64,000 nucleotides of DNA from an uncultured delta proteobacterium (GCA_963850305.1 CAWKKR010000001.1:832001-896000); one strand, 5' to 3'. Counted from the stretch's first letter, positions 1-16,100 are shown. Notes: generated by a model not told the origin, from the letters alone. Translations and numbers: made by a program.

Positions 1-512
1 TCTTGCCGCCCACCGTCCTCGGCTATTACGTGCTCGTCCTTTGCGGCAGAACGAGCCCGCTCGGGAAGGCCTTCGAGTCCCTCACCGGCGTGTCGCTCGT
101 CTTCTCGATGACCGGCATCGTGCTCGCCGCGACGATCGAGGCGCTGCCGCTGGTCATCATGTCGTCGCGGGCCGCGCTCGAGAATGTGGACCGAACGCTC
201 CCGCGCGCCGCACGCACCCTCGGCGCGAGCCCCTTCCGCGCCTTTCTCACGGTCGAGCTCCCCATCGCGGCGCCCGGCATCCTTTCGGGACTCATGCTGG
301 GCTTCGCGCGCGCTCTCGGGGACTTCGGCGTCACGCTCATGGTCGGTGGCAACATCCCCGGCGAAACGCAGACCGCATCGCTCGCCATCTACGACGCCAT
401 CTCGGCGGATCGCGACCGAGACGCGCTCGGCATGATCCTCATCCTGACGTTCGTCACCGTCGTGGTCCTTTACTTCGCGGGACGGCTCGGCCGGGCGACG
501 CGTGCCGTCTGA
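1..512 (+). CDS. modB: Molybdate ABC transporter permease ModB (5'-truncated by window edge)
   Basis: LPPTVLGYY motif, EAA-like loop AARTLGAS, FARALGDFGVTLMVGGNIPGETQT typical of ModB; overlaps modC start. Confidence 0.93.
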   Translation, partial: LPPTVLGYYVLVLCGRTSPLGKAFESLTGVSLVFSMTGIVLAATIEALPLVIMSSRAALENVDRTLPRAARTLGASPFRAFLTVELPIAAPGILSGLMLGFARALGDFGVTLMVGGNIPGETQTASLAIYDAISADRDRDALGMILILTFVTVVVLYFAGRLGRATRAV

Positions 513-1200
513 GACGCTGCGCGCGCGAGTGCGTGTGAAGGTCGGGGCGTTCGTGATCGATGTGGCGCTCGAGGTGCCCCCTGGAATCACGGTCCTGTTC
601 GGCCCCTCCGGGTCCGGCAAGAGCACCACTCTGGCGGCGATCGCCGGCCTCCTGCGCCCCGAGGTCGGCCGTGTCGCGCTCGGAGACACGGCATGGTTCG
701 ACGCGGAGCTCGGCATCGATTCGCCACCCGAGCTCCGGAGCGTGTCGCTCGTCTTTCAGTCGCTCGCGCTCTTCCCGCATCTCACGGCGCTCGAGAACGT
801 CGAGTACGGCATCGACCGTCGAATGCCCCGCGCCGAACGAGTCCGTCGCGCTCGCGAGATGCTGGACCGCATGAAGGTGCCGCACGTCGCGGCGCGGAAG
901 CCGGCCACGTTCTCGGGTGGAGAGGCGCAGCGCGTCGCCCTGGCGCGCGGGTTCGCGAGGAAGCCCCGGCTCGTGCTCCTCGACGAAGCGTTCTCCGCGC
1001 TCGACCGGGAGCTCCGGTACGAGCTCGGCGCCGACGTCCGCTCGATGATCTCGGAGCTCGACGTCCCGGCGATCGTCGTGACCCATCACCGCATGGAGGC
1101 TCGAAGTCTCGGCGACCGCGCCATTCTCTTGCGGAACGGGCTGGTGGAAAAGACGGGCCCCGCGAGACAGGTCATTCCGGCGCCCGAGCGCGAAGAGTGA
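502..1200 (+). CDS. modC: Molybdate ABC transporter ATP-binding subunit (short form, no TOBE domain)
   Basis: Walker A GPSGSGKST, signature FSGGEAQRVALAR, Walker B LLLDEAF, H-loop VTH; follows modB. Confidence 0.9.
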   Translation: MPSETLRARVRVKVGAFVIDVALEVPPGITVLFGPSGSGKSTTLAAIAGLLRPEVGRVALGDTAWFDAELGIDSPPELRSVSLVFQSLALFPHLTALENVEYGIDRRMPRAERVRRAREMLDRMKVPHVAARKPATFSGGEAQRVALARGFARKPRLVLLDEAFSALDRELRYELGADVRSMISELDVPAIVVTHHRMEARSLGDRAILLRNGLVEKTGPARQVIPAPEREE

Positions 1201-1228: not shown

Positions 1229-2203
1229 TCACCGCGACACGGTGACGTCGCGCGCCAGCACGTCGACGCCGCCCCGAGAATCACGGAGCGCGAGCCAGAG
1301 ACGAACGACACCAGGCGCATCGGGAGCCGTCCATCGGTTCGTCATCGACAGAGCCAGGTCGCTCGCGCTCCGGCTCGTCGATTCCGTGTCGAGCTCTCCC
1401 GCGGTCACGTTCCAGGCGAGCTGCATCGACTCCCGCTCCGTTCCCAGTAATCCGGTGCCGGCATCGACGTACGCGAACGTCTCGACGTCCGCCGCGTCCC
1501 AGCTCGCCGTCAGGTCCACCCGGGCTCCCGCCGGCACGTCCGATAGATCGACGGCGCGCCCGTCGATAGCCCCGGCCAGTGACGCGATGTGGGGATTCTG
1601 GTTGGGCAAGTACGCCTGCGCAAAGGCCGACGCGACGTCCGCGGAGGCGTTGGCCACGCCACACGACACGCGGGCCAGATGAAAGACGGGAGCCTCGCGG
1701 TCCAGGTCGACGCGTAGCGGCTGGTAATATCCGCCCGTGACGTCGGGATCGCGCGGACGAAACCCGCCCGGCGCCGCGATCGGGCCGAAGAGCGTACAGG
1801 CGTCGAAGGGCGTCTGCGCGACGACGGAATCGCCCTCTCCAAGCTGGCGCAGCGACGCCGCATCGAGGCACGCCGACGAAACCACGGCGTTCTCCGCGGG
1901 GGACTTGGGCGCCGTGCAAAACGCGAAGGTCGCGACGTCTCGACCGCCGTCTCCCGCGGGGTCGGCGATGAACGCAGTATACGTCGCCGACTCGCCCGGC
2001 TTCGTCTCGGCGGGCTCGCCCTTCACGGCAATGACTCGCGGGGAGGTCACGAGCCAGTCGTTCGACGGCAAGTGCGGCTCGCACGCGACGAACCCGAGAG
2101 CGAGAAGAGTCAGGGCTCCAAGCAAGGGGGCCTTGCCCCCGCGGCTCGCTTCGCGACCGCTCCCCCGCCGCCTTCGGCGGGCTCGCTTCGCTCGCGAAGT
2201 CAT
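1229..2203 (-). CDS. Lipoprotein associated with TonB-dependent receptor; N-terminus encoded by REP-like element
   Basis: ATGA overlap with receptor stop; hydrophobic stretch plus lipobox FVAC; PRVIAVKGEPAE and C-terminal LRDSRGG typical of myxobacterial TBDR-partner lipoproteins. Confidence 0.75.
   Translation of the reverse strand: MTSRAKRARRRRRGSGREASRGGKAPLLGALTLLALGFVACEPHLPSNDWLVTSPRVIAVKGEPAETKPGESATYTAFIADPAGDGGRDVATFAFCTAPKSPAENAVVSSACLDAASLRQLGEGDSVVAQTPFDACTLFGPIAAPGGFRPRDPDVTGGYYQPLRVDLDREAPVFHLARVSCGVANASADVASAFAQAYLPNQNPHIASLAGAIDGRAVDLSDVPAGARVDLTASWDAADVETFAYVDAGTGLLGTERESMQLAWNVTAGELDTESTSRSASDLALSMTNRWTAPDAPGVVRLWLALRDSRGGVDVLARDVTVSR
2123..2195. repeat. REP-like palindromic element copy (78-bp family)
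   Basis: Hairpins GGGGGC-CTT-GCCCCC and CCCGCCG-CCTT-CGGCGGG; near-identical to units at 9842-10075. Confidence 0.9.
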
Positions 2204-4623
2204 AAGTCGAGCCTCGCTCCGAGGACGCCGAGCGCGGGGAGGCCCGTGATGACGCCGCGCTTGGCGTAGGCTGCGGTGTACTCGTACTCGGCCGCGTTCG
2301 GGTGGTTCGTCACGTTCAACGCTTCGAGATAGATGGAGAGCCGTGCGCGCGCGCCGAGGGAAAAACGCCGATCGACGCGCAGATCGAGCTGCCAGAAATC
2401 GGGCAACCGGATCGAGTTCTGAGCGCCGAAGATGGGCTGATACACATCGTCCTTGTCGTCGTAGAGGGCTCCGGTGACGGGCGTACGCGGGAGACCGCTA
2501 GCAAAGCGGAACCGCGCGCCGAAGGTGAAGGGACCGACGGCCTGGTTCCCGGCGAGCGCGAGCACGTCGGGCTCGTCTTCGTCCGCCAGGTGATAACTTG
2601 CGCCGGGCGCGTCGCGGCGCTCGCTCCTCGAGATGGTGCAAGCGACCCATCCAGAGAAGCCGTGCCACCGGCGCTGGCGGAGCATGACCTGCACACCGTA
2701 GCTCCGGCCCACGCCGTCCTGCAGGAGCGCGTGCGCGAGCTTCGGGGTCGGTGACGGATCGCGCACGGCGAGATCGGTCATCCGCTTGTAGAAGCCGAGC
2801 ACCGTCGCCGATAGGGTCGGCGTGATCTCCACGCTCTCGCCGACGCTCGCGTGGTACGCGGACTCCGGGCCGAGCGCCGGAGACCCGAACACGGCGCTCA
2901 GATCGGACGGCGCGGGTGGCTGCGTGTAGATCCCTCCCGCAACGAGCGCGACGACCCGCCGCGACAGTCGGACCCGCGACGAGAACCGCGGCTCGAGCTC
3001 GAAGTCGAGCCGCGACGACCCGATCGCCGGGGTGAGACCGACCTTCGGCGTCGTTCGACTCGCGTCGATCAGATATGCGTCGGCGCGGAGGGACGGCGTG
3101 ACCGTCACCGGACCCCAGTCGAAGTCGAGAATGGCATAGGGCGCGACGTCGACGATGGCGGCGCGCCAGGCGTCACTCGCCGTGTCATCGCCCGGCACTT
3201 CACCGAAGACGGTCACGTCGTTTTCGCGTGCGGGCAAGCTGAACGAACCGCTCCGCGAAAGGCTCGCGTGCGTTCCCGTCCCATCCACGCCGAGCGCAAG
3301 CGTCGTCCGCGAGTCGAGGCGGGACCGATGATCCGCGCGCAGTCCCCATCGCAAGTCGTGTTCCTCGAGCAACGCCGGAGTCGATCCGAACTGGCCGTCG
3401 AAGCGACTCGTGTCGCTGCCGACCCACGGAGTCACGTCGACCCGAGCGCCGTCGCTCTCGGTGCGCTCGTAGCGGAGCGCCAGCCGTTCGAACCCTGTCG
3501 TCGTCGTCGCGCGCTGCGTGTGCGCTGGATCCGCGTCCGCGCCGACCTGAGTCAGTTCGTCGTGGGAGCCCAGAAAAAGCACACTCAGCGACTCTCGCGC
3601 ACGCAGATCGAGCTCGAGCTTCGCCTGGTAGTCGTCGTAGCGCGGGATCGGAAAGACCGCGGCGGAGCCGGGGTTGCCGATCGCGGAAACGACGCCGTCG
3701 AGCCAACCGTAGCGCCCGGCGACGGCGAGCCGCACGCGGTCGCCCACGGTGCCAGTCACGAACGCCGATCCGTCGAGCACGCTCGCGTCCGCGGAGCCAT
3801 GCCAGCCGTCGCGCGGGAGCTCGCGGGTATCGACGCGGACTATGCCGCCGAGCGCGCGGCCGTCGTCGGCCCCATACGCACCGGGCGAGAGCGAGAGGGC
3901 GGCGATCAGATCGCCGTTGACGGTGCTGCGCAGCGCTTCGCCGTGGAAGAGCGACGGGATCTCGACGCCATCGACATAGACGCGCGTGTCCTGCGCGGGT
4001 GAGCCCCAGACGACGAGCGGATCCGCGCCGAGAGACGCGTGGGCCACGCCCGGAAGATCTTCCACGACCTTCGCCGGGTCACCCGCGGTTCCGGCGACGG
4101 ACGCGGCCTCTGCGGCGTCGAGTTTCGTCTCGATCGCGTCGCGCCGGGACCGCATGCCACGCACCACGACGCCGCTCGGTGTCTCCGGCAAGGCCAGCGC
4201 GAGGCTCGGCACGGATCGCGACCCCGGTGCGACGACAGTCGGCGGCGGGGCGTACGCGAACGTGTACCGGTAACGGATCTTCGCGGCGACGATCCGACCC
4301 TCGCGTCGAGCCGGCGCGAACACGAAGCGCCGAGCGGCCGCCGCGGCGGCTGCATCGAAGTCGGCTCCCCCCGAGCGCACGACTCTCGCGCCCGCGACGC
4401 GGCCGTCGATACCCACCGTGAGCACGAGGTCGACCGTCGACGAACGCGTCTCGCGCAGCGGAAACGGCGCGGCGACGAACGTGACGAGCGTCGGCGGCGT
4501 CGTCGTGAGCTCGGGCGCGTGGACCGGCGCGTCCGCGTGGACAGAGGGCGAAGCAAACACTGCCGCCAGGACGGCGGCGCGAACGGCGCGCGCGACCCGA
4601 AGGGCACGGCGCTCAGGGCACAT
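2200..4623 (-). CDS. TonB-dependent receptor with N-terminal TonB C-terminal-like domain
   Basis: Signal peptide; TonB_C-like segment (VGIDGRVAGARVVRSGGADFDAAAAAAARRFVFAPA); plug (DPAKVVEDLPGV, YVDGVEIPSLFH, GAYGADDGRALGGIV); barrel ending RLPDFWQLDLRVDR...NVTN...GARLDL. Confidence 0.9.
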   Translation of the reverse strand: MCPERRALRVARAVRAAVLAAVFASPSVHADAPVHAPELTTTPPTLVTFVAAPFPLRETRSSTVDLVLTVGIDGRVAGARVVRSGGADFDAAAAAAARRFVFAPARREGRIVAAKIRYRYTFAYAPPPTVVAPGSRSVPSLALALPETPSGVVVRGMRSRRDAIETKLDAAEAASVAGTAGDPAKVVEDLPGVAHASLGADPLVVWGSPAQDTRVYVDGVEIPSLFHGEALRSTVNGDLIAALSLSPGAYGADDGRALGGIVRVDTRELPRDGWHGSADASVLDGSAFVTGTVGDRVRLAVAGRYGWLDGVVSAIGNPGSAAVFPIPRYDDYQAKLELDLRARESLSVLFLGSHDELTQVGADADPAHTQRATTTTGFERLALRYERTESDGARVDVTPWVGSDTSRFDGQFGSTPALLEEHDLRWGLRADHRSRLDSRTTLALGVDGTGTHASLSRSGSFSLPARENDVTVFGEVPGDDTASDAWRAAIVDVAPYAILDFDWGPVTVTPSLRADAYLIDASRTTPKVGLTPAIGSSRLDFELEPRFSSRVRLSRRVVALVAGGIYTQPPAPSDLSAVFGSPALGPESAYHASVGESVEITPTLSATVLGFYKRMTDLAVRDPSPTPKLAHALLQDGVGRSYGVQVMLRQRRWHGFSGWVACTISRSERRDAPGASYHLADEDEPDVLALAGNQAVGPFTFGARFRFASGLPRTPVTGALYDDKDDVYQPIFGAQNSIRLPDFWQLDLRVDRRFSLGARARLSIYLEALNVTNHPNAAEYEYTAAYAKRGVITGLPALGVLGARLDL

Positions 4624-5497
4624 CGAACGTCAGCACGAGCGTCCCTGCGCCTCGATCGTGCGCTCCCCATGTGTCCTGATCGAGCGCGATGCCTTCGGCG
4701 GCGCCGACCGACTTACCGTGGAGAAGCGCACGCACTTGATAGTGCGCGATCACCTGCCCGCAGAGCGACGCCGCATCGACACGGACCAGGTATTTTCCCG
4801 ACGGCGGGTCGGTCGCCCAGGTCACGTCCTCTTGGCGGCGCCCGTCGATGACGCAATTGGCGTTCGAGTCGACATCGAGAATGCCGGGGTTCTGGTCGGT
4901 CGAGCCGCCGGGAGCGTAGGCGTTCGCCGACGTTGGATTGCCGTGGAAGATCTCGTTGCCGAGCGGGTCGACGACGTGAAGATCGAGGTCCGACTCCGTG
5001 TCCCACGTCAGCGTCACGACGAGCGCGCCGTTCAGGGCACTTCCCGGCGGTCCATCCAGCGCGGTCAACGGCTGAGTGCTCGCGGAACCGACGAGACCGT
5101 TCACGTCCACCGCTCGGACTTCCAGGGTGTAAGCTCCGGGTAAAAGCGTGGTCGCGAACTGCGCGGTCGCGCGGAACGACGGCAGAGTCGGGGTGGAGAC
5201 GTCCGGAGGACCCGAGAGGACGATCCAGTAACCGTCATCCCCGACGAGATCGACGAGCGCGCTCGTGGCGGTCGGACCGAGCGCACCGGTGAGCAGCTTG
5301 TCGTCGTAGCCGGGCCAGATCGTGTTCGTCAGCAGATCGATCGACTCCACACTCGGTCCGCCCGACGGCGCGGGCGGTTTCCCCGGCACGAACTGGGCGC
5401 CGTCCACGCGCATCATGGACGACAGCGCGGGGTCGTCGGTGGCGCCTTCCGTACACGCCGAGAGGAGCATCGCGAGAACGACGTGGACGGGACGCAT
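4613..5497 (-). CDS. Lipoprotein with YfaP/DUF2135-like C-terminal domain
   Basis: Lipobox LSAC; LVVTLTWDTESDLDLHVVDP...LDVDSN...GKYLVRV motif; TGATG coupling with upstream porin. Confidence 0.75.
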   Translation of the reverse strand: MRPVHVVLAMLLSACTEGATDDPALSSMMRVDGAQFVPGKPPAPSGGPSVESIDLLTNTIWPGYDDKLLTGALGPTATSALVDLVGDDGYWIVLSGPPDVSTPTLPSFRATAQFATTLLPGAYTLEVRAVDVNGLVGSASTQPLTALDGPPGSALNGALVVTLTWDTESDLDLHVVDPLGNEIFHGNPTSANAYAPGGSTDQNPGILDVDSNANCVIDGRRQEDVTWATDPPSGKYLVRVDAASLCGQVIAHYQVRALLHGKSVGAAEGIALDQDTWGAHDRGAGTLVLTFDVP

Positions 5498-7041
5498 CAG
5501 AATGCCGCCTGCGCGCGCACGGTCAGCGCATCGCTCTTCAGTGTGGTCGGCGCTCCGTTCTGGTCACGGCCGAGCGCGTTCCAGTTCTTGTCGTATTCGA
5601 TCGAGAGGCGCTGGAGTCCGCACCGGAACATCGCCAGGAGCGCGAGCGTGCCGTAGCTCCGGTCGACAGGGACGACCTGGATGGCCTGCTGCTCGCGCGC
5701 ATCCTGGTCGGGGTCGTAATGATCGTACCGCACGCCGACGAGCGCCCACTTCGTGATCTCCTGCGTCGCGCCGACGTAATAACCGAGCTCGCGGAGACCG
5801 TAGCCCGCGCCGACGGGATCGGCGGGCTCGATGCCGCGATCCAGGTTCTCCGAGCGGACGATCTCGGCGCGTAGCGACAGCGCCGCGCCCGGCGAGAACT
5901 CCAACCGGAGCCGCACGTCGCCACCGATGGCGAACCGGTGGAACGTCTGGGACGCCGTCGCGGACGATCCCGGGATCACCTGGATCTCCGTCGCCTGCAC
6001 GATGCCGTCTCCGTTTTCGTCGCGCCAGACCACCTGATCCTTGGTCGTCGGGGTACCCTCATGAAAGCCGCTCCCCGTATCCGCGGAGACCCCGGCGTCG
6101 AACCGGACGCCGCGAACGAGCTCGGCGCCGGTGCCGAGCCGGCCGACGATTTCCTTCGCGGCCAGGGGCGCGAGCGCCGGAAAGACGCGGTCGCCGATCG
6201 GGTTGCCGTTCATGACGGCCACGGCCAGCTCGAACCCCCGGTAACGGATCCGGGCACGGGCACCGAGATCGAACTCGCCCGGAAAGAGCGCGCGCATCAC
6301 CGTGGAGCGCTCGAGAAAAGGGCGCACGTTGTCGAGCTCCGGAACCTCGAACCCGAACGGGATCTTCATGAGGCCGGCGGTCAGGAGAAGATCCGGGAGC
6401 CGCGGGTCGCGTTCCGCTGGCCACTTCAGCGATACCTCGGCGTCGATCGGCCGCACCTGGGGGCCGTTCGTCGTGTTCGCGTCGATCTCGAGCGCGCCGC
6501 TCAAGATCCCGCGCTCCGCGTCCACGCGCACGTGTCCGCGCCGGAGCGTGAAGCGGTCCTGGTTCTCCGGGAGGCCCGTCGAGAAATCGATCTGGTTCTG
6601 AGACGCCTGGTCGTGAACGAGCCAGTCGATCTGCACGTACCCGGACAGCCGCGGACGCTGCGCGGCTTCGGCTTCGTCCCTCGCGACGCGCTGCTCGAGC
6701 TTCGCGAGATTTTCCGCGTCTTCACGAACGGCGTCGCGAAGGGCCGCTTCGCCGGATGGAGAGGCGGGCGCGGAGACCACACTCGCGTTCGGAACCAGCG
6801 CGGGCGTCGACGACGCAGGCGCGGACGCTGCGCCCGCGCTCGGCGCCGGGGTCGGGGACGGCGTCGCAGGCGCAGACGCCGCGCTCGGAACCGGAGTCGG
6901 TACCGGCGCGGCAGGCGCGCTCGCACTGGGCGCCGGAGCGACGGTTTCGGCCGCCGGTGGCGCCGCGCCTTCGGCACGTGTGGACGCGGCGAAGGCCACG
7001 ATCCACGACGCGCCGAGGGCCGCGGCCACGCCGGATCTCAC
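5497..7041 (-). CDS. Outer-membrane porin, phosphate-selective porin O/P-like
   Basis: GTG start at 7041 overlapping the corrected upstream stop; signal peptide, Pro/Ala linker, coiled coil, LSGYVQ...FTLRRGHVRV...GLMKIPFGFE...FLERS; terminal Phe (RAQAAF). Confidence 0.75.
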   Translation of the reverse strand: MRSGVAAALGASWIVAFAASTRAEGAAPPAAETVAPAPSASAPAAPVPTPVPSAASAPATPSPTPAPSAGAASAPASSTPALVPNASVVSAPASPSGEAALRDAVREDAENLAKLEQRVARDEAEAAQRPRLSGYVQIDWLVHDQASQNQIDFSTGLPENQDRFTLRRGHVRVDAERGILSGALEIDANTTNGPQVRPIDAEVSLKWPAERDPRLPDLLLTAGLMKIPFGFEVPELDNVRPFLERSTVMRALFPGEFDLGARARIRYRGFELAVAVMNGNPIGDRVFPALAPLAAKEIVGRLGTGAELVRGVRFDAGVSADTGSGFHEGTPTTKDQVVWRDENGDGIVQATEIQVIPGSSATASQTFHRFAIGGDVRLRLEFSPGAALSLRAEIVRSENLDRGIEPADPVGAGYGLRELGYYVGATQEITKWALVGVRYDHYDPDQDAREQQAIQVVPVDRSYGTLALLAMFRCGLQRLSIEYDKNWNALGRDQNGAPTTLKSDALTVRAQAAF

Positions 7042-8562
7042 GGCAAGGGCTCGAGCGTACTGGACGGCAACACCACAGTCTTCGCGACAGGCGTCGCCGT
7101 GGTGCAGGCATTCACGAGGTCGGCGTTCGTCGTCGGCGTGCCGCTCACGCACGAGGAGCTCGGCGTGCCGCTCGTGTCGATCGCGTCGGGCTCGCAGAAG
7201 CCGAAGCTACACGCTCCGCCACTGCAATCCGAGCTCGACGTGCACGGCGTGCAGCCGGTCGGGGTCCCCGTCGCGCCAGGGATCTTGCTCAGGTAGTAGC
7301 AGGTGCAGGACGCGGGAGGCGACGCAGGCGACAGAATCGCCGCCGTCCGTCGTGCGCGTCACTTGCATGGCGCACTGGGGAATGAGACCGACCTTGACGA
7401 CGTCCGCGAGCCCGTCGAAGCCGACCCCGCCGTCTCCTGCGGCGGCCTTGCCGAGCACGGCGTCCATCAACGTGGCCACCTCGGGGTTCGTCGGCGTGTT
7501 CGAGCCGTCGACCTTCGTGATGTACACGGTCGGCGACCACAATGTGTAATGGCCGTCGCGCAGGTTCTGCTTGTCGAACGTCGATGACGAAGAATCCGGG
7601 TAATAGGCCGTGTTCTGGTTGAATGCCTTGAACGCGAGCGTCTTGATGCCCTTCCCGCGATTCGCGTCGTAAACCTCCGCGCCGAGGATGCCGATGGTGG
7701 CCTCCGGACTCGTGGAGTTCGTCACGGCGTTCACGACGTCGGTCGACGCGGCTTCGGGAACGCCCTTCCACTTGTTGGGCGGCACGTCGATGTTCTTCGC
7801 CGTCGCGACGAGCGTGCTCTTCGTCGATGGTCGAATGAACAGGAAGCTCTCGTTGTTCCAGGGGTCGTAGGTCGGAGCGAGCGGGTTCGCGTTGCCGAAG
7901 CCGAACGCGTAGTAAGCCTCCTCGGCCCAGATGGCATTCTGGTCGCTCGCCGTCGGGACGATGAAGGTGTACGCCTGGATCGGACCCTGGATGAGCGCGA
8001 GACCCGACGGCGTCGGCCCGAGCCCGCAGCTGTCCACGAACAGGGCGGAGATCGCGACGTCGATCGCCACGCCGGCAGAGCCCGTCGTGCACGTCAGCTC
8101 CGGATCCGAGGGCGTCCAGGACGGATCTTCGGCCGTCGACGGGATGTACTTGAGGGTTCCGTTCGGGACGATGTTCGCGTTCGTGTAGATGTCGTTCGTC
8201 AGCGTGCAGGAACCCGTCAGGTTGAACGCGATCGTGACATCGTCGTGATCGCGAAGGTGACGGCCGACGTTCTTGAGCAGGTTCTCCTGCGTGTCTCCGG
8301 ACTCGATATAGACGACCTTTCCGGGCAACTTGCCGCAGGTGCCCTGCGCCGAGCCCGCGTCGCTCCGGCCGCCATCGGCGACGGACCCGTCCTTCGTCGG
8401 AGGGGTGACGTGACCGTGACCTGCATCGGCCGGCGACCCGGAGTCGGGAGAGGACCCCGCATCGTTGTCGGCGGTCGTCGTCGGGTGCTTCTTGCTCGAG
8501 GAGCAAGCCGCGACGAGCAACATCAAAGAAGCGAGCTTCAAACCGTGTACTCGTTGGCTCAT
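7038..8562 (-). CDS. PstS/PBP2-like substrate-binding surface lipoprotein with Cys-rich tail; +1 frameshift at ~7335
   Basis: Lipobox VAAC; segments like TIGILG and LRDGHYTLWSPTVY resemble PstS-type binding proteins; deleting one base at 7335-7336 gives a 507-aa ORF ending ...STLEPLP* at 7038, coupled (GTGA) to the porin. Confidence 0.65.
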
Positions 8563-8590
8563 TCACGGACTCCCTTACGCGTATTCGATT

Positions 8591-9751
8591 TCAAGCGGCA
8601 TGAATCTCGGCGACGCGCTCCCCCGAGGACCCGATGTCGTAGCCGAGCGACGCGAACTCGTGGCGCAGCGGCGCGGCCACCATCAAATCCAGCAGACGGA
8701 CCAGGCGAGGATCGTCCAGGCCCTCCGTCGGGACGACGAGATCGTAGCGTTCTTCGGCGACGGAGATGAAGTCGAGCCCGAAAGCGAGCGCCGCATCGCG
8801 CGTCGCGATGCCGAGGTCCGCGGCGCCGATGGAGATGGCGTGCGCGACCTCGAGATGACCCGTCACGTGCACCGCTTGGGCCGGCGCGACGGGGAATGCG
8901 ACCCCGGCGCGAGCGGCTTCCAGATCGAACAGACGCCGGGCACCCGAGCCCGCCTCCCGCAGGGCGACGCGGAGCTCGGGGCGCGCCAGATCACCCGCGC
9001 CGCGAATCCGCCTCGGATTGCCAGGGGCGACGAGCAAGCCCGCTTCCCAGCGCGCGAGCGTGATGAGAACGACGCTGCGTCCGTGGACGTGGCGGCGGAC
9101 GTCGGGCACGTTCGCTTCCCCCGTTCGTCCGTCCACCAGATGGACGCCCGCGACGTGCGCCTGATGACGGCCGAGCGCGTCCAGAGCCCGCGTGCTCCCG
9201 CGCACGAACGACAGGAACCGGCCCGGTCCCGGGCGCGCGTTGAGTCGATCCGCGAGGAGGCCGAGCGCGGGCGCGCACCCCATGATCACGAAGTTCGCGC
9301 GACAGTCGGACAGCGGGCGGAGCAGGTGCACGTCCGAGCCCGGCGCTTCGGAGATCAACGCATCTGCGGACGAGCCGAGCCCGTGATGCTCGAGCACATG
9401 AGAAACCCAGCGCCCGTCGATCTGCGCGAGCGCGACACGCCCCGTGGCCGAGCGCTCGGCGGGTTCGAGCGAGAGACGCACGCGCGCCGGCTCGTCCGCC
9501 TCGAAGAGCGTCTCCACCCGGCACCCGAGCACGCGTCCCAGGCATAACGCCACGTCCACGCCGGGGGTCGCGCGCCCCGCCTCGATCGCGCCGAGACTCT
9601 GGCGCGAGAGCCCGGCGCGGGCGGCGAGGTCAGTCTGAGACAGACCGCGCGCTTCGCGGAGCTCCCTCACGCGACAGACGCCCCTGGCCGGGGTCTGGAC
9701 GGAAGCCGGGGTCGCCCGCCGAGCTCTCTCCCGTCGCGTAGAAGAAGCCAT
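8591..9751 (-). CDS. XRE-type HTH regulator fused to molybdate-binding-type PBP domain (YvgK/MoeA-PBP-like)
   Basis: HTH RELREARGLSQTDLAARAGLSRQSLGAIEAG; PBP motifs GSTRALDAL, AGVHL, GLLVAPGNP, REAGSGAR, FGLDFISVAEERYDLV. Confidence 0.88.
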   Translation of the reverse strand: MASSTRRERARRATPASVQTPARGVCRVRELREARGLSQTDLAARAGLSRQSLGAIEAGRATPGVDVALCLGRVLGCRVETLFEADEPARVRLSLEPAERSATGRVALAQIDGRWVSHVLEHHGLGSSADALISEAPGSDVHLLRPLSDCRANFVIMGCAPALGLLADRLNARPGPGRFLSFVRGSTRALDALGRHQAHVAGVHLVDGRTGEANVPDVRRHVHGRSVVLITLARWEAGLLVAPGNPRRIRGAGDLARPELRVALREAGSGARRLFDLEAARAGVAFPVAPAQAVHVTGHLEVAHAISIGAADLGIATRDAALAFGLDFISVAEERYDLVVPTEGLDDPRLVRLLDLMVAAPLRHEFASLGYDIGSSGERVAEIHAA

Positions 9752-9760
9752 GACAAGCGC

Positions 9761-9790
9761 ACGTTACATTGCGACATGTATACTTGTCAC
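9761..9790 (-). promoter_or_regulatory. Candidate sigma70-type promoter with overlapping palindromic operator
   Basis: Minus strand GTGACA-N18-TAACGT ending 9 nt before the regulator ATG; near-perfect palindrome GACATGTATACTTGTC at 9773-9788; AT-rich patch in GC-rich DNA. Confidence 0.5.
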
Positions 9791-9800
9791 CCAGGAAACG

Positions 9801-10081
9801 CGCTCGCTAATCAAGGGGGTCTTGACCCCCGCGGCTTGCTTCGCTCGCTAATCAAGGGGGTCTTGACCCCCGCGGCTTGCTTCGCAACCGCTCCCCCGCC
9901 GCCTTCGGCGGGCTCGCTCCGCTCGCTAATCAAGGGGGTCTTGACCCCCGCGGCTTGCTTCGCAACCGCTCCCCCGCCGCCTTCGGCGGGCTCGCTCCGC
10001 TCGCTAATCAAGGGGGTCTTGACCCCCGCGGCTTGCTTCGCAACCGCTCCCCCGCCGCCTTCGGCGGGCTCGCTCCGCTCG
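9801..10081. repeat. Tandem array of 78-bp REP-like palindromic element (41-bp partial + 3 identical full copies)
   Basis: Units at 9842-9919, 9920-9997, 9998-10075; each has GGGGGTC-TT-GACCCCC and CCCGCCG-CCTT-CGGCGGG hairpins. Confidence 0.95.
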
Positions 10082-10137: not shown

Positions 10138-10932
10138 ATGCTTCAGAGCTTCGACGCTCAGGCGGCTTGGTTCGGCACTCGCGCGGGGCTCCCGGAACCC
10201 GTGAAGGAACGGATCGCAGACGCGATCCTCATCCTCGGACGGCTGACGCCAGCGCGCCACGTCATCGATGTGGGCGCGGGGACCGGCGAGATCGGGCTCG
10301 AGCTCGTCGCGCGGGGCGTCGGCTACCTCGGCATAGACGAATCCGACGCGATGCTCGGAATCTTCCGACGACGCGCCGCCGAACGGCATCTGACACCCTC
10401 CCTGCTCGTGGCGGATGCTCGCGACCGCTGGCCAGTGGCGGACGCCTCCCAGCACGTCGTGTTCGGCTCGCGGAGCCTGCACTGGCTCGCCGCGGAGGAC
10501 GTCGCCGAGGAGGCGCTTCGCGTCGCCGCGCCGGGCGGGGCCGTTCTCCTCGTCGGGCGCGGCGTTCACGATCCTGCGGGGCCGCGTGAGCGCGTCCGTC
10601 GAGCGATGCGTGAGGCTCTGCGCGAGGCGGGCTTCGAGGGAAGAAACGGCGGACGGAGCACCGTCAATCTCCTTTCTGCCTGCACGGCTCGTGGCGCGAC
10701 GCCGATCGAGACGCGGACGGTCGCGCGCTGGACCGTCCGGCGCTCGCCTCGCGCGGCCATCGACGACTGGCGCGGCAAGAGCGGCCTCGCCGGCATCGAG
10801 GTACCCCCGGCAGAAAAGAGCGCCATTCTGGCCCGCGTCACCGAGTTCGCCGAGAGCGCGTTCGCGAACATCGACGAGCCCATCGAATCCGAAGAATGTT
10901 ACACGCTCGAGGGCGCGACCCTGACCCCATGA
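10138..10932 (+). CDS. Class I SAM-dependent methyltransferase
   Basis: Motif I IDVGAGTGEIG, GIDESDAML, SLHWL, ALRVAAPGG. Confidence 0.88.
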   Translation: MLQSFDAQAAWFGTRAGLPEPVKERIADAILILGRLTPARHVIDVGAGTGEIGLELVARGVGYLGIDESDAMLGIFRRRAAERHLTPSLLVADARDRWPVADASQHVVFGSRSLHWLAAEDVAEEALRVAAPGGAVLLVGRGVHDPAGPRERVRRAMREALREAGFEGRNGGRSTVNLLSACTARGATPIETRTVARWTVRRSPRAAIDDWRGKSGLAGIEVPPAEKSAILARVTEFAESAFANIDEPIESEECYTLEGATLTP

Positions 10933-10954: not shown

Positions 10955-11776
10955 ATGAAAGACGATCTGCTCACCGAGCTCGGGCATTCGCTCGTCACGG
11001 GCTCGCTCACGGACGACGAGCTCCTCGCGGAGACGCGCGGCCCGTCCATCATCAACATCTTGCCGGACGCGAATGTCCTCAAGATCGGCGGACAGAGCAT
11101 CATCGATCGCGGTCGCGCGGCCGTGTTCCCGCTGGTCGACGAGATCGCGGCGAACCTGAAATCCCACAAGATGATCATCGGCACGGGAGCGGGAACGCGC
11201 GCTCGCCACGCCTACAGCGTCGGGATCGATCTCGGGATGCCGACGGGCGTGCTCAGCGTCCTCGGGACGTTCGTGAGCATGCAGAATGCGCGGATGCTGC
11301 ACTACCTGCTCGCGAGGTACGGCATCCCGTTCATCGAGCCGGCGCAGTTCCCGCAGCTCCCCCACTACCTCGAGGAGCGACGCGCGGCGGTGTTCTTCGG
11401 CATGCCGCCCTACACGTATTTTCACCGGAACCCCGCGACCGGCCGCATCCCGCCGCATCGGACGGACACCGGCGCGTACCTCGTGAGCGAGGTGTTCGGA
11501 GCTCGGTCCATGATCTACGTCAAGGACGAAGACGGTCTCTTCACGGCCGATCCGAAGAAAGACCCCTCGGCGAAGTTCATCCCGAAGATCAGCGTCGAGG
11601 AGCTCGTCGCGCTGGATCTGGGAGACGTCGTGATCGAGCGCGCCGTGCCGGAGATGATGGCGAACGCGGAGCACATGAGAACCATCCAGATCGTGAACGG
11701 CCTGGTCCCCGGCAACCTGACGCGCGCCCTCGACGGCGAACACGTCGGAACCCTCATTTACGCGGACTCTCCGTAA
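10955..11776 (+). CDS. mosB: Molybdenum storage protein subunit (MosB-like; amino-acid kinase/UMPK fold)
   Basis: ILPDANVLKIGGQSIIDRGRAAVFPLVDEI, GTGAGTRARH, VKDEDGLFTADPK, VNGLVPGNLTRALDGEHVGT closely match recalled Azotobacter MosB. Confidence 0.85.
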   Translation: MKDDLLTELGHSLVTGSLTDDELLAETRGPSIINILPDANVLKIGGQSIIDRGRAAVFPLVDEIAANLKSHKMIIGTGAGTRARHAYSVGIDLGMPTGVLSVLGTFVSMQNARMLHYLLARYGIPFIEPAQFPQLPHYLEERRAAVFFGMPPYTYFHRNPATGRIPPHRTDTGAYLVSEVFGARSMIYVKDEDGLFTADPKKDPSAKFIPKISVEELVALDLGDVVIERAVPEMMANAEHMRTIQIVNGLVPGNLTRALDGEHVGTLIYADSP

Positions 11777-11787
11777 CCGGAGCGACC

Positions 11788-12603
11788 ATGGCCGACGATA
11801 GACATCACCTGCGCTCGCTCCTCATGCGGGAGAGCCTCGTCGACAAGGACGTGATCCGTTCCACGGACGGGCCCATCGTTCGCATGTTGCCCGACGTGCA
11901 CGTCGTGAAGATCGGCGGCGCGTCCGTCATCGACCGCGGCAAGGAGCGTCTGTTTCCCATCGTCGAGGTGCTCGGTCGCCTGCTCGGGCGGGAGCGCTTG
12001 ATCCTGGGAACCGGCGGCGGCGCGCGCAGCCGGCACGTGTTTTCGATCGGCCTCGATCTCGGGTTGCCGGTCGGCGTGCTCGCGGAGCTCAGCGGCGCCG
12101 ATGCACTCGGCAATGCGCACATCCTCGGAACCCTGCTCGCCCCGCTCGGCGTGGTGGCGATTCCGCCGGAAATGTTCGGGCACCTGCTGCCGCTCTTCAT
12201 CACCGCCGCTCCCGGCGTCATCTTCAATGGCGTGCCCCCTTACAAGCTGTGGGAGCACCCGCCGCGCATCGGACGCATCCCGCCGCATCGCACGGACGCC
12301 GGATGCTTCCTCGTCGCGGAATCCTTCGGCTGCAAGACGCTCACGCTCGTGAAGGACGTCGATGGCCTTTACCTGGAAGACCCGAAGAAGAATTCGTCCG
12401 CGCAGTTCATCCCCGAGATCGGGGTCCGCGAGCTGCGTGCAAAAAAACTCAAGACGTTGCCCTTCGACGCCGTGCTCCTCGAGCTACTCGAAACGGCGCG
12501 GCTCCTCGATCGCTTTCAGATCGTGAACGCGTCGAAGCCCGAGCTCATCGAGCGGGCCCTGGCCGGCGAACGAGTCGGAACGATCGTCCACAAGGACGGC
12601 TGA
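11788..12603 (+). CDS. mosA: Molybdenum storage protein subunit (MosA-like)
   Basis: Paralog of preceding gene; N-terminal HLRSLLMRESLVDKD and RHVFSIGLDLGLPVG, RIPPHR match recalled MosA. Confidence 0.78.
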   Translation: MADDRHHLRSLLMRESLVDKDVIRSTDGPIVRMLPDVHVVKIGGASVIDRGKERLFPIVEVLGRLLGRERLILGTGGGARSRHVFSIGLDLGLPVGVLAELSGADALGNAHILGTLLAPLGVVAIPPEMFGHLLPLFITAAPGVIFNGVPPYKLWEHPPRIGRIPPHRTDAGCFLVAESFGCKTLTLVKDVDGLYLEDPKKNSSAQFIPEIGVRELRAKKLKTLPFDAVLLELLETARLLDRFQIVNASKPELIERALAGERVGTIVHKDG

Positions 12604-13172: not shown

Positions 13173-16100
13173 ATGAAGCGCGTCACCTCCTTACTAGCCT
13201 CGGTCGGATTCCTCGCTTCCTACGCGGCCTCGGCGAGTGCCCAGGTGTCCGTCACCCTGTACCCATCCCAGGACACGACGATCTACAGCGATTCCGTGAA
13301 CGCGGACGACGGCGGGGGGAGCACGATCTACGCGGGCGTCAATGGCTCCGGCGGGTCGCGTCGGATCCTGGTCGAGTTCAACGTGGGTTCGATACCCAGC
13401 GGCTCCTCGATCCAGAGCGCGACGCTGTGGCTCTACTGCACAACCGTTCCAAGCGCGCCAGTCGACGAGACGCTCTACGCCCTCCGGATCACCAATAGCT
13501 GGGGAGAAGGCGGCGATACCAGCGGCGGAAGCGGTGGAACGACCGCCGGTGGCGGCGCCGCGACGTGGAACTACCGGTTCTACGCGTACTCGGCCTGGGG
13601 CAGCGCTGGAGCCGACGTTTATCCTTACGCAACGTCCGCCTGGACCGAGGACGGATCGACGGGGTGGAAGTCCTGGCCAAACATGCAGGGCGATGTGTCG
13701 GCCTGGGTGAACGGTACGGACGGCAACTACGGCTGGATGATCTACGACTACCCCGGGAACGACTACACGGCGCGCGCGTTTTACTCCCGCACGGGGGCCA
13801 CTCCGCCGGAGCTCATCATCTCCTATTACAAGCCGCTCGGCGCGACGTGCAGCGCGAGCTCGCAGTGCGGGAGCGGCGCTTGCACGAACGGATATTGCTG
13901 CAACGTCTCGAGTTGCCCGGCACAGAACGAGTGCCAGTCTTCGGCGCCGACCTGCGGACCGTCCGGAACGTGCAGCAATCCCGCGGTCGCGAACGGGACG
14001 GCGTGCAGCAGCGATGGCAATCCCTGCACGATCGATGAATGCATCGGGGGCGCGTGTAGCCACCCCGCAGCGGGCAGCATCACCTGTCCGGACGATGGGA
14101 ACCCTTGCACGAGCGACGTCTGCAGCGGCACCAGCTGCACGCACCCGGCAGGCAATGACGGAGCAGCGTGCGCGGCCGATAGCGACCCTTGCACGAGCGA
14201 CATCTGCAGTGGGGGGGCATGCACGCATCCCGCCGGAAACGACGGGGCGACCTGCGACGACGGCAACGCCTGCACCCAGGTCGACGAGTGCTCCGGCGGA
14301 ACCTGTCAGGGCTCGAGTCCGGTCTCTTGCTCGGCGCTGGACGAATGCCACACGGCCGGCACCTGCAACCCCTCGACCGGGATTTGCTCGACGCCGACCA
14401 AGTCCGACGGCACGGCGTGCACGGCCGACTCGAACCCCTGCACCCTGGACGAGTGCCTGAGCGGCACGTGCTCGCACCCCGCCGGCAATTCGGGCATGGC
14501 CTGCGCGGACGACGGGAACGAGTGCACGAGCGACACCTGCGACGGAACGCACACCGTCTGCGAGCATCCGCCGAAGAGCTCTGGCACGGCCTGCACGGCC
14601 GACACGAACCCGTGCACCCTCGATCAATGCGATGGCGCAGGGACCTGCGCGCATCCCGCCGGCAACGCGGGCACGCAATGTAGCGGCCCGAGCTGTGCGT
14701 GCCCCGGGGGTCCGTGCACGGCGACCCTGGCCTCCACCTGCAGCGGAACCAGCACGACCTGTCCGACTGCCGGCACCGTGTCCTGCGCCGGCGAACTCTG
14801 CTCCGGAAATGTGTGTGCGGGAGGGTGCAGCAAGGACACGGATTGCAGCGCAGGAAACTTCTGCCTCGGTGGCAAGTGCACGAGCACCCGGGCCAATGGC
14901 GACCCGCTCGGCTGCTCCGCGGACGACTACTGCACGAGCGGCAACTGCGTCGACGGCTATTGCTGCAACACGGCCTGCGCCGGGGGAACGACGGACTGCC
15001 AGGCGTGCAGCGTCCCGGGTAAGCTCGGGACGTGCTCGCCGATCCCGGCCAAGACCCCGTGTCGCGCGGCGAACGGCGTTTGCGACGCGGCGGATAGCTG
15101 CGACGGCACGAACACCGCGTGTGTGGACTCGAAGCTGCCGAGCGGCACGGCTTGCCCCGACGACGGGAACGAGTGCACGAGCGATACGTGCGACGGCACG
15201 GACAACGCTTGCCAGCACCCGAACAAGAGCGCCGGCACCGCGTGCACGGACGACGGCAATCCCTGCACCACGGACACTTGCCAGGGCGGCTCGTGCAGTC
15301 ACCCGGCGGGGAACGCAGGGACCACGTGTCGCGGCCTGAACGGAACCTGTGATGTCATCGAAACGTGCACGGGTTCGAGCACCAGCTGCCCCGCGGACGC
15401 GTTCAAGCCGGCGAGCACGGCGTGCCGGACCGAGTCGTGCGCGGGCGGCGTCCAGACGAACGCCGCCAACTGTTCCGGTACCGGACCCGCCTGTCCCGTC
15501 GCGACGACGGCCACGTGCGATCCTTACGTCTGCGGCCCCAACGCCTGCTTGACCGGCTGCACCACGGACGCCAATTGCATCAGCGGCGACTGGTGCAATC
15601 CGGGCACGAAGACGTGTCAGCCGAAGCTTGCCACGGGGATCGCCTGCACGACCGCGGACTCCTGCACGTCGGGCTTCTGCGTCGACGACGTTTGCTGCGG
15701 CAGCGCGTGCACCGGGCAATGCCAGGCCTGCGACGTCCCGTCGAAGCTCGGGGTGTGCACGCCGACCGTGGGAACGCCGCACGGCACGCGCGCGGCGTGC
15801 ATCAGCGACGGGTCGACGTGCGGCGGCGCGTGCGACGGCACCGTCGTCACGGGATGCCATTATCCCGCGTCGACGACCCAGTGCCGCGCACCGGCGTGCA
15901 TCGACGGCGAGGCCACGCTCGCCGCCAACTGTAGCGGAGCCGGCAAGTGCCCGGCCCTGCAAACTCAGGATTGCGGACAGTACGAGTGCGGCCCGACCGC
16001 TTGCCTCGGCAACTGCGCGAACGACGCGAATTGCGTCCCGGGCGACTTCTGCTCGGCGAACGTCTGCGTGCCGCGGATGACGGCGGGGCAAGCCTGCGGC

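Follow-up and report, generated by a model that had tools for sequence, protein, structure and literature searches.

A conserved Myxococcota gene cassette with an apparent role in outer-membrane oxyanion acquisition, and its molybdenum-linked copy in an uncultured delta proteobacterium

The window analyzed here is a 64,000-nucleotide stretch of DNA from an uncultured delta proteobacterium (GCA_963850305.1, CAWKKR010000001.1:832001-896000). Near its start lie six co-oriented minus-strand genes (Table 1), all of them present at the span given in a preliminary description (1229-9751). The coupled stop/start codons noted there are also real: GTGA at 7038-7041, TGATG at 5497, and ATGA at 2200-2203. 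Moreover, the receptor gene starts 11 nt inside the YfaP-like gene, and a gap of 28 nt separates the regulator gene from that of the binding protein. The run had been placed between modBC and mosBA; modBC indeed converge on it and MosB is confirmed, but a methyltransferase gene and REP-like repeats separate the regulator from mosBA. The best NCBIfam match of modC is TIGR02142 (199 bits, under the cut-off of 285), and modA lies just outside the window (C1:831121-831771 of this genome; TIGR01256, 192 bits, cut-off 62.5). The methyltransferase was considered as a member of the system and rejected, with 0 matches in the 200 related loci mapped, and it probably stands outside it. Eight relatives have a short N-terminus in the last lipoprotein, in contrast to the REP-like insertion found here. 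The Mo demand of this genome (95% complete) is modest, with two Molybdopterin matches; neither nitrogenase nor MoCoBD_1 was found in it, and no RNA holder was listed for the window locus.

Table 1. Genes and other features at the locus, numbered from the first nucleotide of the window.
Feature	Position	Strand	Evidence or remark
modB permease, partial in window (5′ end outside)	1..512	+	TIGR02141, 173.8 bits, partial protein
modC ATPase, short, without TOBE, convergent with cassette	502..1200	+	TIGR02142
Cassette-specific lipoprotein, Cys-rich, last cassette gene	1229..2203	-	alignment of 52 sequences
REP-like repeat, in frame within signal region of last lipoprotein	2120..2194		92% match to 9846-9925 repeat
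TonB-dependent receptor, N-terminal TonB_C domain	2200..4623	-	PF03544, Plug, OMP_b-brl_4
Lipoprotein, possible YfaP/DUF2135-like C-terminal domain	4613..5497	-	lead only
OprP-fold porin (predicted)	5497..7041	-	AF2 model and structure match
PstS-fold binding lipoprotein (predicted) with fused small-lipoprotein tail	7038..8562	-	AF2 fold; frame break near 7335
Regulator, XRE (HTH_3) and PBP_like (PF12727)	8591..9751	-	PF12727 E 5.9e-54; HTH_3 E 4e-13
Tandem palindromic operator candidate, conserved	9751..9789		overlaps regulator start codon
REP-like repeat, three and a half tandem copies	9805..10081		genome-wide repeat, 249 blastn hits
Class I SAM methyltransferase	10138..10932	+	PF13649
MoSto beta (MosB)	10955..11776	+	E 1.6e-91 to 2ogx_B
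Second MoSto subunit, taken as MosA	11788..12603	+	43% identity to MosB

The binding-protein gene had been described as one gene at 7038-8562. It is present, but in more than one frame: the ORF that starts at 8562 ends after 451 aa at 7207, and a Cys-rich tail in another frame runs to 7038. The break point is read through by 11 of 12 close homologues, the 12th being cut by its own contig end, and a public soil-metagenome contig with 0 substitutions over 7312-7463 has base 7335 absent, at a site only 23 nt from the contig end. The one-base frame break near 7335 is probably an assembly error; a recent pseudogene is conceivable. Many relatives carry a seventh gene, for a small lipoprotein, after that of the binding protein, and in the window and its close kin the C-terminal domain of this small lipoprotein is fused to the binding protein. 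The AF2 model (pLDDT 90.3) predicts a PstS-like fold, nearer to PstS (4gd5, Z 24.9, rmsd 2.2, 234 aligned, with the Foldseek top 1000 re-compared) than to the ModA structures (Z 15.7-16.9); TupA and WtpA were not among the 50 matches listed. The profile of the binding protein matches PstS1 (4exl) at E 0.005. No Pfam family was found for it, and no SBP_bac_11, TIGR01256, TupA, or WtpA model matched at E 0.1. Its profile search gave 551 clusters at 50% identity, with E up to 1e-30, and among the best 120 of 807 homologues none has a Pfam domain and every named one is "hypothetical."

The AF2 model of the porin (pLDDT 94.8) best matches OprP (2o4v; Z 28.5, rmsd 2.9, 302 aligned) among 48,161 representatives, with DcaP next (Z 25.5); Foldseek ranked DcaP first and OprP fourth, and the best TM-score was that of OprP (0.63). 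The protein has an Ala/Pro-rich N-terminal linker, an EF-hand-like loop, and 14 conserved R/K positions. Porin_O_P (PF07396) is matched weakly in 17 of 86 porin members (best E 1.4e-5), the window porin being without a match, and neither the porin nor the YfaP-like alignment, run as a profile, found a significant match among PDB sequences. The receptor, with PF03544 (E 6.5e-9), Plug (E 6.4e-4), and OMP_b-brl_4 (E 3.3e-7), appears to be of the TonB-dependent type with plug and barrel; its paralogue on C7 of this genome (42% identity) matches PF00593 at E 1.2e-18. Reading the receptor as an MxcH/siderophore receptor was rejected (NF038079, 65.7 bits versus a cut-off of 925). A complex prediction for its plug and barrel with the binding protein (score 0.00, mark 0.32) speaks neither way. 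The lipoprotein encoded at 4613-5497 reaches a DUF2135 cluster in the ESM Atlas (0.83), and PPC is found in 4 of its 59 members, while the last lipoprotein has no Pfam family and its ESM Atlas matches are unnamed Myxococcota clusters only. No SusD Pfam domain was found in any cassette gene. The fold labels assigned earlier as PstS-like, OprP-like, and TonB_C-plug-barrel stand, and "YfaP-like" is a weak lead only.

The genes for the binding protein, porin, lipoprotein, TonB-dependent receptor, and last lipoprotein are a conserved Myxococcota cassette. Among 137 dereplicated loci that extend 9 kb or more downstream, 96 keep the full five-gene order, and the arrangement is therefore not due to chance. 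Binding-protein homologues occur in 35/401 phylum genomes (single query) and in 158/401 order genomes (profile), the latter tally including two unpublished genomes that were left out of all other analyses; Polyangium jinanense and Minicystis rosea DSM 24000 are cultured carriers. Three hundred loci were collected from 40 of 41 single-query matches, the best 80 of 429 genome and 80 of 239 metagenome matches (both found with the window-clade alignment), and 100 of 150 listed profile matches. Drawn partly with that alignment, the sample is enriched for the window clade. A length filter kept 298 of 301 sequences, which reduced to 231 representatives at 90% identity. An IQ-TREE tree of 85 sequences, midpoint-rooted, has three clades: the window clade (SH-aLRT 97.8), to which the present protein belongs, the S clade (97.1), and the P clade (97.1). 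Loci were typed by motif first, and 18 were then reassigned by the tree. The order is complete in 56/64 window-clade, 21/22 S, 14/42 P, 2/2 nested, and 3/7 basal loci. Of 35 cassettes complete in the P and S clades, 34 include an exbB gene, against 0/56 in the window clade; other exbBD copies are present in this genome. The other four proteins (porin, receptor, and both lipoproteins) follow the clades of the binding protein, with 4-5 label changes versus 22-33 when shuffled; since kin share clade labels, this shows inheritance as a unit and not co-evolution.

The clades differ in their genomic company, as judged by markers that were picked after the neighbours were seen and in related loci that are not independent. 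A Mo marker, meaning Mo genes or PF12727 regulators within the fetched loci, is found in 44/126 window-clade representatives (39/99 of those with at least 1.5 kb upstream) and in 0/35 S, 0/56 P, 0/4 nested, and 0/9 basal loci. The background in this genome is 2 of 318 20-kb windows, both being this locus. The link is the regulator alone in 35 of the 44 and mod, mos, or nif genes in nine. It takes several forms: the regulators are of the HTH_3-PBP or the HTH_17-PBP type and may be co-oriented or divergent, modABC (with ModA and ModB verified) can lie on either flank, and mosAB and nif also occur; HTH_17-PBP homologues flank 12 window-clade loci. Mo-marked loci are spread over several deep branches of the window clade in the midpoint-rooted tree. 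Sulfur markers occur in 17/35 S loci, one P locus, one basal locus, and 0 window-clade loci; the S-clade neighbours are cysPTW (verified), cysK, a family 2A encapsulin with desulfurase, and YeeE-like, TauD-family, and Rrf2 genes, the TauD-family neighbour scoring best with a phosphonate dioxygenase model, under its cut-off. Phosphate markers (pst/phoX/phnW-type) are present in 8/56 P loci, one S locus, and 0/126 window-clade loci. In addition, this genome has a second cassette on C7, of the P type, between pstSCAB-phoU/phosphoesterase genes and a PhoB-like regulator. The first 40 loci had suggested little Mo linkage, a picture that changed after the clades were separated.

The cassette family as a whole is not Mo-specific. 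The proposed Mo link holds for this copy and for much of the window clade, where two types of PF12727 regulator, modABC, mosAB, and nif are neighbours, but not for the whole family. That homologous operons might be generally unlinked to Mo, the outcome named earlier as contrary to the proposal, is partly what was found: the P- and S-linked clades, with the second copy in this genome, have no Mo marker, and Mo neighbours are few in two branches of the window clade.

The binding-protein pockets vary along with the clades. Positions 9, 10, and 56 and the R..SGT motif are cited in what we take to be E. coli PstS numbering, anchored by profile alignments. Pockets were mapped by motif alignment rather than from model coordinates, since hhalign, given the clade alignment and a PstS sequence, reached a probability of only 0.1. 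In the window protein the pocket comprises G89-D90-T91, A173, R244, and K248-S249-T250; the PstS phosphate signature is absent, with A173 at the D56 position and KST in place of SGT. D9 and T10 are found in 122/122 window-clade sequences, D56 in none, and KST in 109/122. The P clade has D56 in 54/54 and mostly SGT, the S clade G at position 9 in 33/34 and at position 56 in 28/34, and the nested sequences S9 with D56 in 4/4. As judged from these motifs, the S- and P-clade pockets would fit the ligands indicated by their neighbours. The single carboxylate of the window pocket appears to fit a protonated anion or WtpA-like metal ligation better than a ModA-like all-donor site. WtpA ligates tungstate via carboxylates (PMC4139814, excerpt). 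S-type binding proteins without the D56 aspartate still bind phosphate (PMC13614923, excerpt), and phosphate thus stays a possible ligand of the window type.

A regulator with HTH and PBP domains had been said to head the gene run, which the matches to HTH_3 and PF12727 at 8591-9751 bear out. This architecture, HTH with PBP_like, is that of TaoR (PMC11980592, excerpt); the DNA-binding domain is, however, HTH_3 (XRE) and not the HTH_17 of TaoR. No PDB sequence was matched significantly by a profile of the PBP domain. The two PF12727 structures surveyed in PMC10443332 (excerpt) bind phosphate, and the effector of the window regulator is therefore only putatively Mo/W. Because most Mo links rest on the regulator, its own neighbours were examined in reverse, with 33 matches in 151 family genomes and four loci taken from genomes without a binding-protein match. 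The regulator heads modABC, with ModA and ModB over cut-off, in one locus (L373), and a ModA just over cut-off plus a ModB-like permease under cut-off in another (L376). In L375 it heads genes for an alginate-export-family barrel and a partial SBP_bac_11 (ModA-like) protein; in L374 it is followed by a ScyE-like lipoprotein of a type found beside 20 cassette loci too. Hence a ModA-like gene lies downstream of the regulator homologue in three of the four genomes checked, all without a cassette match. By gene context, the window regulator would be a TaoR-like PF12727 regulator controlling Mo/W genes.

Since the operator candidate overlaps the regulator start codon, the operon may be autorepressed. 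With a matrix built on 17 relatives this site reaches 33.7 bits and the next unrelated site in the genome 14.4, and the tandem palindrome lies upstream of the regulator in 20 of 27 representatives (at most seven mismatches) and in three of the four reverse-test loci. In this genome no such operator was found ahead of modA or mosB.

The two window-clade branches with few Mo neighbours are a Kofleriaceae-rich branch, with a strong Mo marker in 1/35 loci (9/35 counting TupA-like or Fe-S neighbours), and a second branch with 0/14; the ModA of L126 and the modBC of L200 fell below the marker thresholds. Tandem GT(A/C/T)A(C/T)-N6 boxes, which resemble Pho boxes, precede 38/46 Kofleriaceae-branch, 8/18 P-cassette, 3/14 second-branch, 1/43 Mo-marked, and 0/34 S loci, against at most 0.3 per group in shuffled sequence. 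Like boxes lie before pstS in this genome and in 3/5 Kofleriaceae-branch genomes. In 9/30 modA loci (Kofleriaceae) they are also found in the gap that separates a lone modA from a phoB-like gene, and a Pho-like box therefore does not exclude Mo. The strict pattern GTWAC-N5-TGTAAC occurs once each in two Kofleriaceae-branch genomes, at the cassette only, but is no commoner than a reversed control, so that the pattern itself defines no regulon. Since the Kofleriaceae branch combines Pho-like boxes with the window pocket, this pocket seems to serve under a PhoB-type regulator as well. Two explanations offer themselves: a ligand range that goes beyond molybdate, or Mo uptake that has been placed under that regulator in those lineages.

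Collectively, the cassette appears to serve soil myxobacteria in acquiring scarce oxyanions at the outer membrane, in phosphate-, sulfate-, and Mo-linked versions, this copy being Mo-linked. We consider it reasonably probable that the locus is a Mo-controlled outer-membrane system for capturing molybdate/tungstate that feeds ModABC and MoSto. In this model, the XRE-PBP regulator would leave its operator when Mo is scarce and the operon would be read. At the outer membrane, the lipid-anchored PstS-fold protein would bind molybdate/tungstate; its pocket would derive from the phosphate type through a shift of Asp from position 56 to 9 and the gain of a Lys. The anion might then cross the outer membrane via the Arg-rich OprP-fold porin, the TonB-energised receptor, or both, and the two accessory lipoproteins might act as lids or adaptors; ModA would hand the anion to ModBC, and MoSto would store it. 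The folds, gene order, pocket types, genomic company, and operator conservation are computational results; the ligand, Mo sensing, surface exposure, complex formation, and energised transport are what we infer from the genes and their setting. The model is favoured by Mo markers confined to the window clade and varied in arrangement, by the reverse test of the regulator, by the sister clades as internal controls, and by the co-sorting of the partner proteins. Against it count the many regulator-only links, the two branches with few Mo neighbours, the Pho-like boxes, the pocket carboxylate, phosphate binding by proteins without D56 and in the PF12727 structures, the modest Mo demand of the genome, and the lack of an operator match before modA and mosB. 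The earlier reading was right on this locus, but missed the P/S/Mo family, the frame break, and the Pho-boxed branch.

Three other explanations bear on the same data. The G-D-T/K-S-T pocket might bind a protonated phosphorus oxyanion (phosphate, phosphonate, or phosphoester), or oxyanions broadly, with the relocated Asp as proton acceptor and Mo control as a local recruitment. D9 and D56 are mutually exclusive (D9 without D56 in all 122 window-clade sequences, S9 with D56 in all four nested ones), as if one acceptor were kept, and the Pho-like boxes of the Kofleriaceae (38/46) and second (3/14) branches point the same way. Their GTCAC/GTAAC half-sites also precede pstS and phoB-like genes in those genomes, and PhoB-like genes lie within 3 kb in six window-clade loci. 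Nevertheless, pst, phoU, phoX, plc, or phnW neighbours are found in 0/126 window-clade loci, the box is found in only one of the 43 Mo-marked loci, the Kofleriaceae boxes also adjoin lone modA, and a D56-type copy is already present here next to pst and phoB; we regard a phosphorus or broad oxyanion ligand as unlikely.

It is less likely still that Mo is taken up in bound form, as a metallophore or humic chelate, polyoxomolybdate, or cofactor from lysed prey, via the TonB receptor, with the Asp of the binding protein ligating the metal directly as in WtpA. The receptor is kept in 56/64 window-clade loci with room, more than a small anion should need, and one locus (L085) retains receptor, binding protein, and lipoprotein without the porin; carboxylate ligation by WtpA would agree with this explanation. 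The receptor, however, is also found with the P and S clades, for which a chelate would not be expected, another locus (L036) retains regulator, binding protein, and porin without it, and no chelator synthesis genes were among the recurrent neighbour clusters scanned. Slightly less likely again is that the binding protein senses at the surface instead of delivering its ligand, the genes being co-regulated independent parts. The cassette is absent in 28/42 P-clade loci with room, and many P-clade orphans lie beside Ser/Thr kinase and TPR/PEGA genes, as such a sensor might, but all five genes are in order with coupled stop/start codons in the 56 window-clade loci, and the partner proteins co-sort by clade.

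How molybdate and sulfate pass the outer membrane is usually explained by general porins. The cassette discussed here is real and conserved and, with its apparent role in outer-membrane oxyanion acquisition, seems to be undescribed. No described system with this composition was known to the authors of the preliminary description, and none was found in searches of open-access full texts. The cassette is a variation on nutrient-capture systems built from TonB receptors and lipoproteins, and may well prove to be of a separate kind. A more far-reaching idea, that of a phylum-specific outer-membrane machine of PstS-fold lipoprotein, OprP-fold porin, and TonB-dependent receptor with one pocket retuned for phosphate, sulfate, and molybdate/tungstate, is tentative and somewhat doubtful. 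If true, it would imply TonB-energised uptake of small inorganic oxyanions, a dedicated outer-membrane molybdate route, and an undescribed XRE-PBP molybdate sensor. With pocket variants linked to phosphate, sulfur, and Mo occurring in nature on a single fold, the cassette would allow energised oxyanion capture to be tested directly, as well as the way in which a PstS scaffold changes selectivity. It is built of unannotated proteins and widespread in the order, and its locus yields a candidate Mo-sensing regulator with a predicted operator.

Among known systems, phosphate uptake by PstS and OprP/OprO in Pseudomonas shares the PstS fold, the OprP fold with basic residues, and, in one clade, the Pho link. 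The cassette differs in its 12-18% identity, its co-encoded TonB receptor and two or three lipoproteins, its disulfide-rich binder, and its S- and Mo-linked versions; pstCAB/PhoB company is found for the C7 paralogue, unlike the window clade with its lack of P markers. ModABC, TupABC, and WtpABC are genomic neighbours, the probable downstream step, and likewise built on a type II binding-protein fold, but they are inner-membrane transporters, and the cassette binder is nearer PstS, with no ModA or TupA model match. The window regulator shares PF12727 with TaoR-like regulators (PMC11980592, excerpt) and differs in its HTH_3 domain and its operator candidate. Mo control by ModE-type regulators is described without an outer-membrane Mo step in the excerpts of PMC545781 and PMC11672702. 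The PusCD/SusCD-like phosphate utilisation system of Flavobacterium (PMC8115612, excerpt) resembles the cassette in combining a TonB-dependent transporter with surface lipoproteins for a non-iron nutrient, but no SusD domain was found in the cassette, which has a PstS-fold binder and a porin. Pus is thought to take organic P, and no Mo or S counterpart of it is known. The one dedicated outer-membrane Mo route met in the literature examined is that of Pseudomonas aeruginosa, in which T6SS-secreted ModA delivers molybdate to the outer-membrane protein IcmP (PMC8602904, excerpt). An extracellular binder serving an outer-membrane partner is common to both; ModA itself, the T6SS, and a metalloprotease belong to that route and not to the cassette.

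The genome carries a second cassette, of the P-type (the binding-protein clade with phosphate-linked neighbours), within which exbB-exbD-tonB is inserted. Upstream of this cassette (L031) are pstSCAB-phoU, glycosyltransferase genes and a gene for a phosphoesterase lipoprotein; a PhoB-like regulator comes after it. P-type binding proteins also occur as orphans adjoining Ser/Thr kinase and TPR/PEGA genes (L038, L051, L055, L058, L270-L280), with which they possibly form a signalling module for phosphate sensing. Some binding proteins of the Mo-linked window-clade lack the cassette (L084, L176-L178, L182, L183); upstream of these stand genes for a di-heme MauG-like protein and a ScyE-like lipoprotein.

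A lone modA, with modBC absent within 1.5 kb, stands divergent from a phoBR-like pair in genomes of the Kofleriaceae branch of the window-clade (L349, L352, L357, L358, L361-L366, L370), and in most of these loci a tandem box lies between the two. A divergent TupA-like binding protein is a recurrent cassette neighbour (L032, L037, L119, L123, L125, L137, L192, L225, L227); the L192 protein matched NF041772 with an E of 1.6e-13 and a score far under the cut-off. Genes of the nif cluster (nifW, fixA-like, iscA-like) stand immediately upstream of the cassette and its regulator in some Polyangiaceae-like genomes (L074, L083, L155, L179). The in-frame fusion of a binding protein to a MoSto piece in L106, after which come mos-modABC, is a deletion or misassembly. 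The alginate-export-family barrel of L375 is a second candidate outer-membrane Mo channel.

S-type cassettes adjoin sulfur genes in eight loci (L047, L247, L256, L261, L271, L303, L317, L318), namely cysPTWA, cysK, YeeE-like, TauD-family and family 2A encapsulin plus cysteine desulfurase genes, and are a candidate outer-membrane sulfate/thiosulfate system.

Coordinates of cassette-related loci, repeats and large proteins
Feature	Location	Strand	Remark
P-type cassette (L031)	C7 (contig of the same genome):275376-286551
Binding protein fused to MoSto C-terminal piece	L106:9911-11239		in frame
Alginate-export-family barrel and ModA-like gene	L375:1763-3121		headed by the same regulator type as the window's cassette
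REP-like repeat	window 2120-2194		in frame inside signal region of cassette's last lipoprotein
REP-like repeat copies, tandem	window 9805-10081		upstream of regulator
Large secreted protein, 1543 aa, Cys-rich	window 13173-17804	+	downstream of mosBA
Large secreted protein, 2673 aa	window 21323-29344	+	downstream of mosBA

The C-terminal end of the 1543-aa protein is presumably MYXO-CTERM-like. Genome-wide, the REP-like repeat gave 249 blastn matches.
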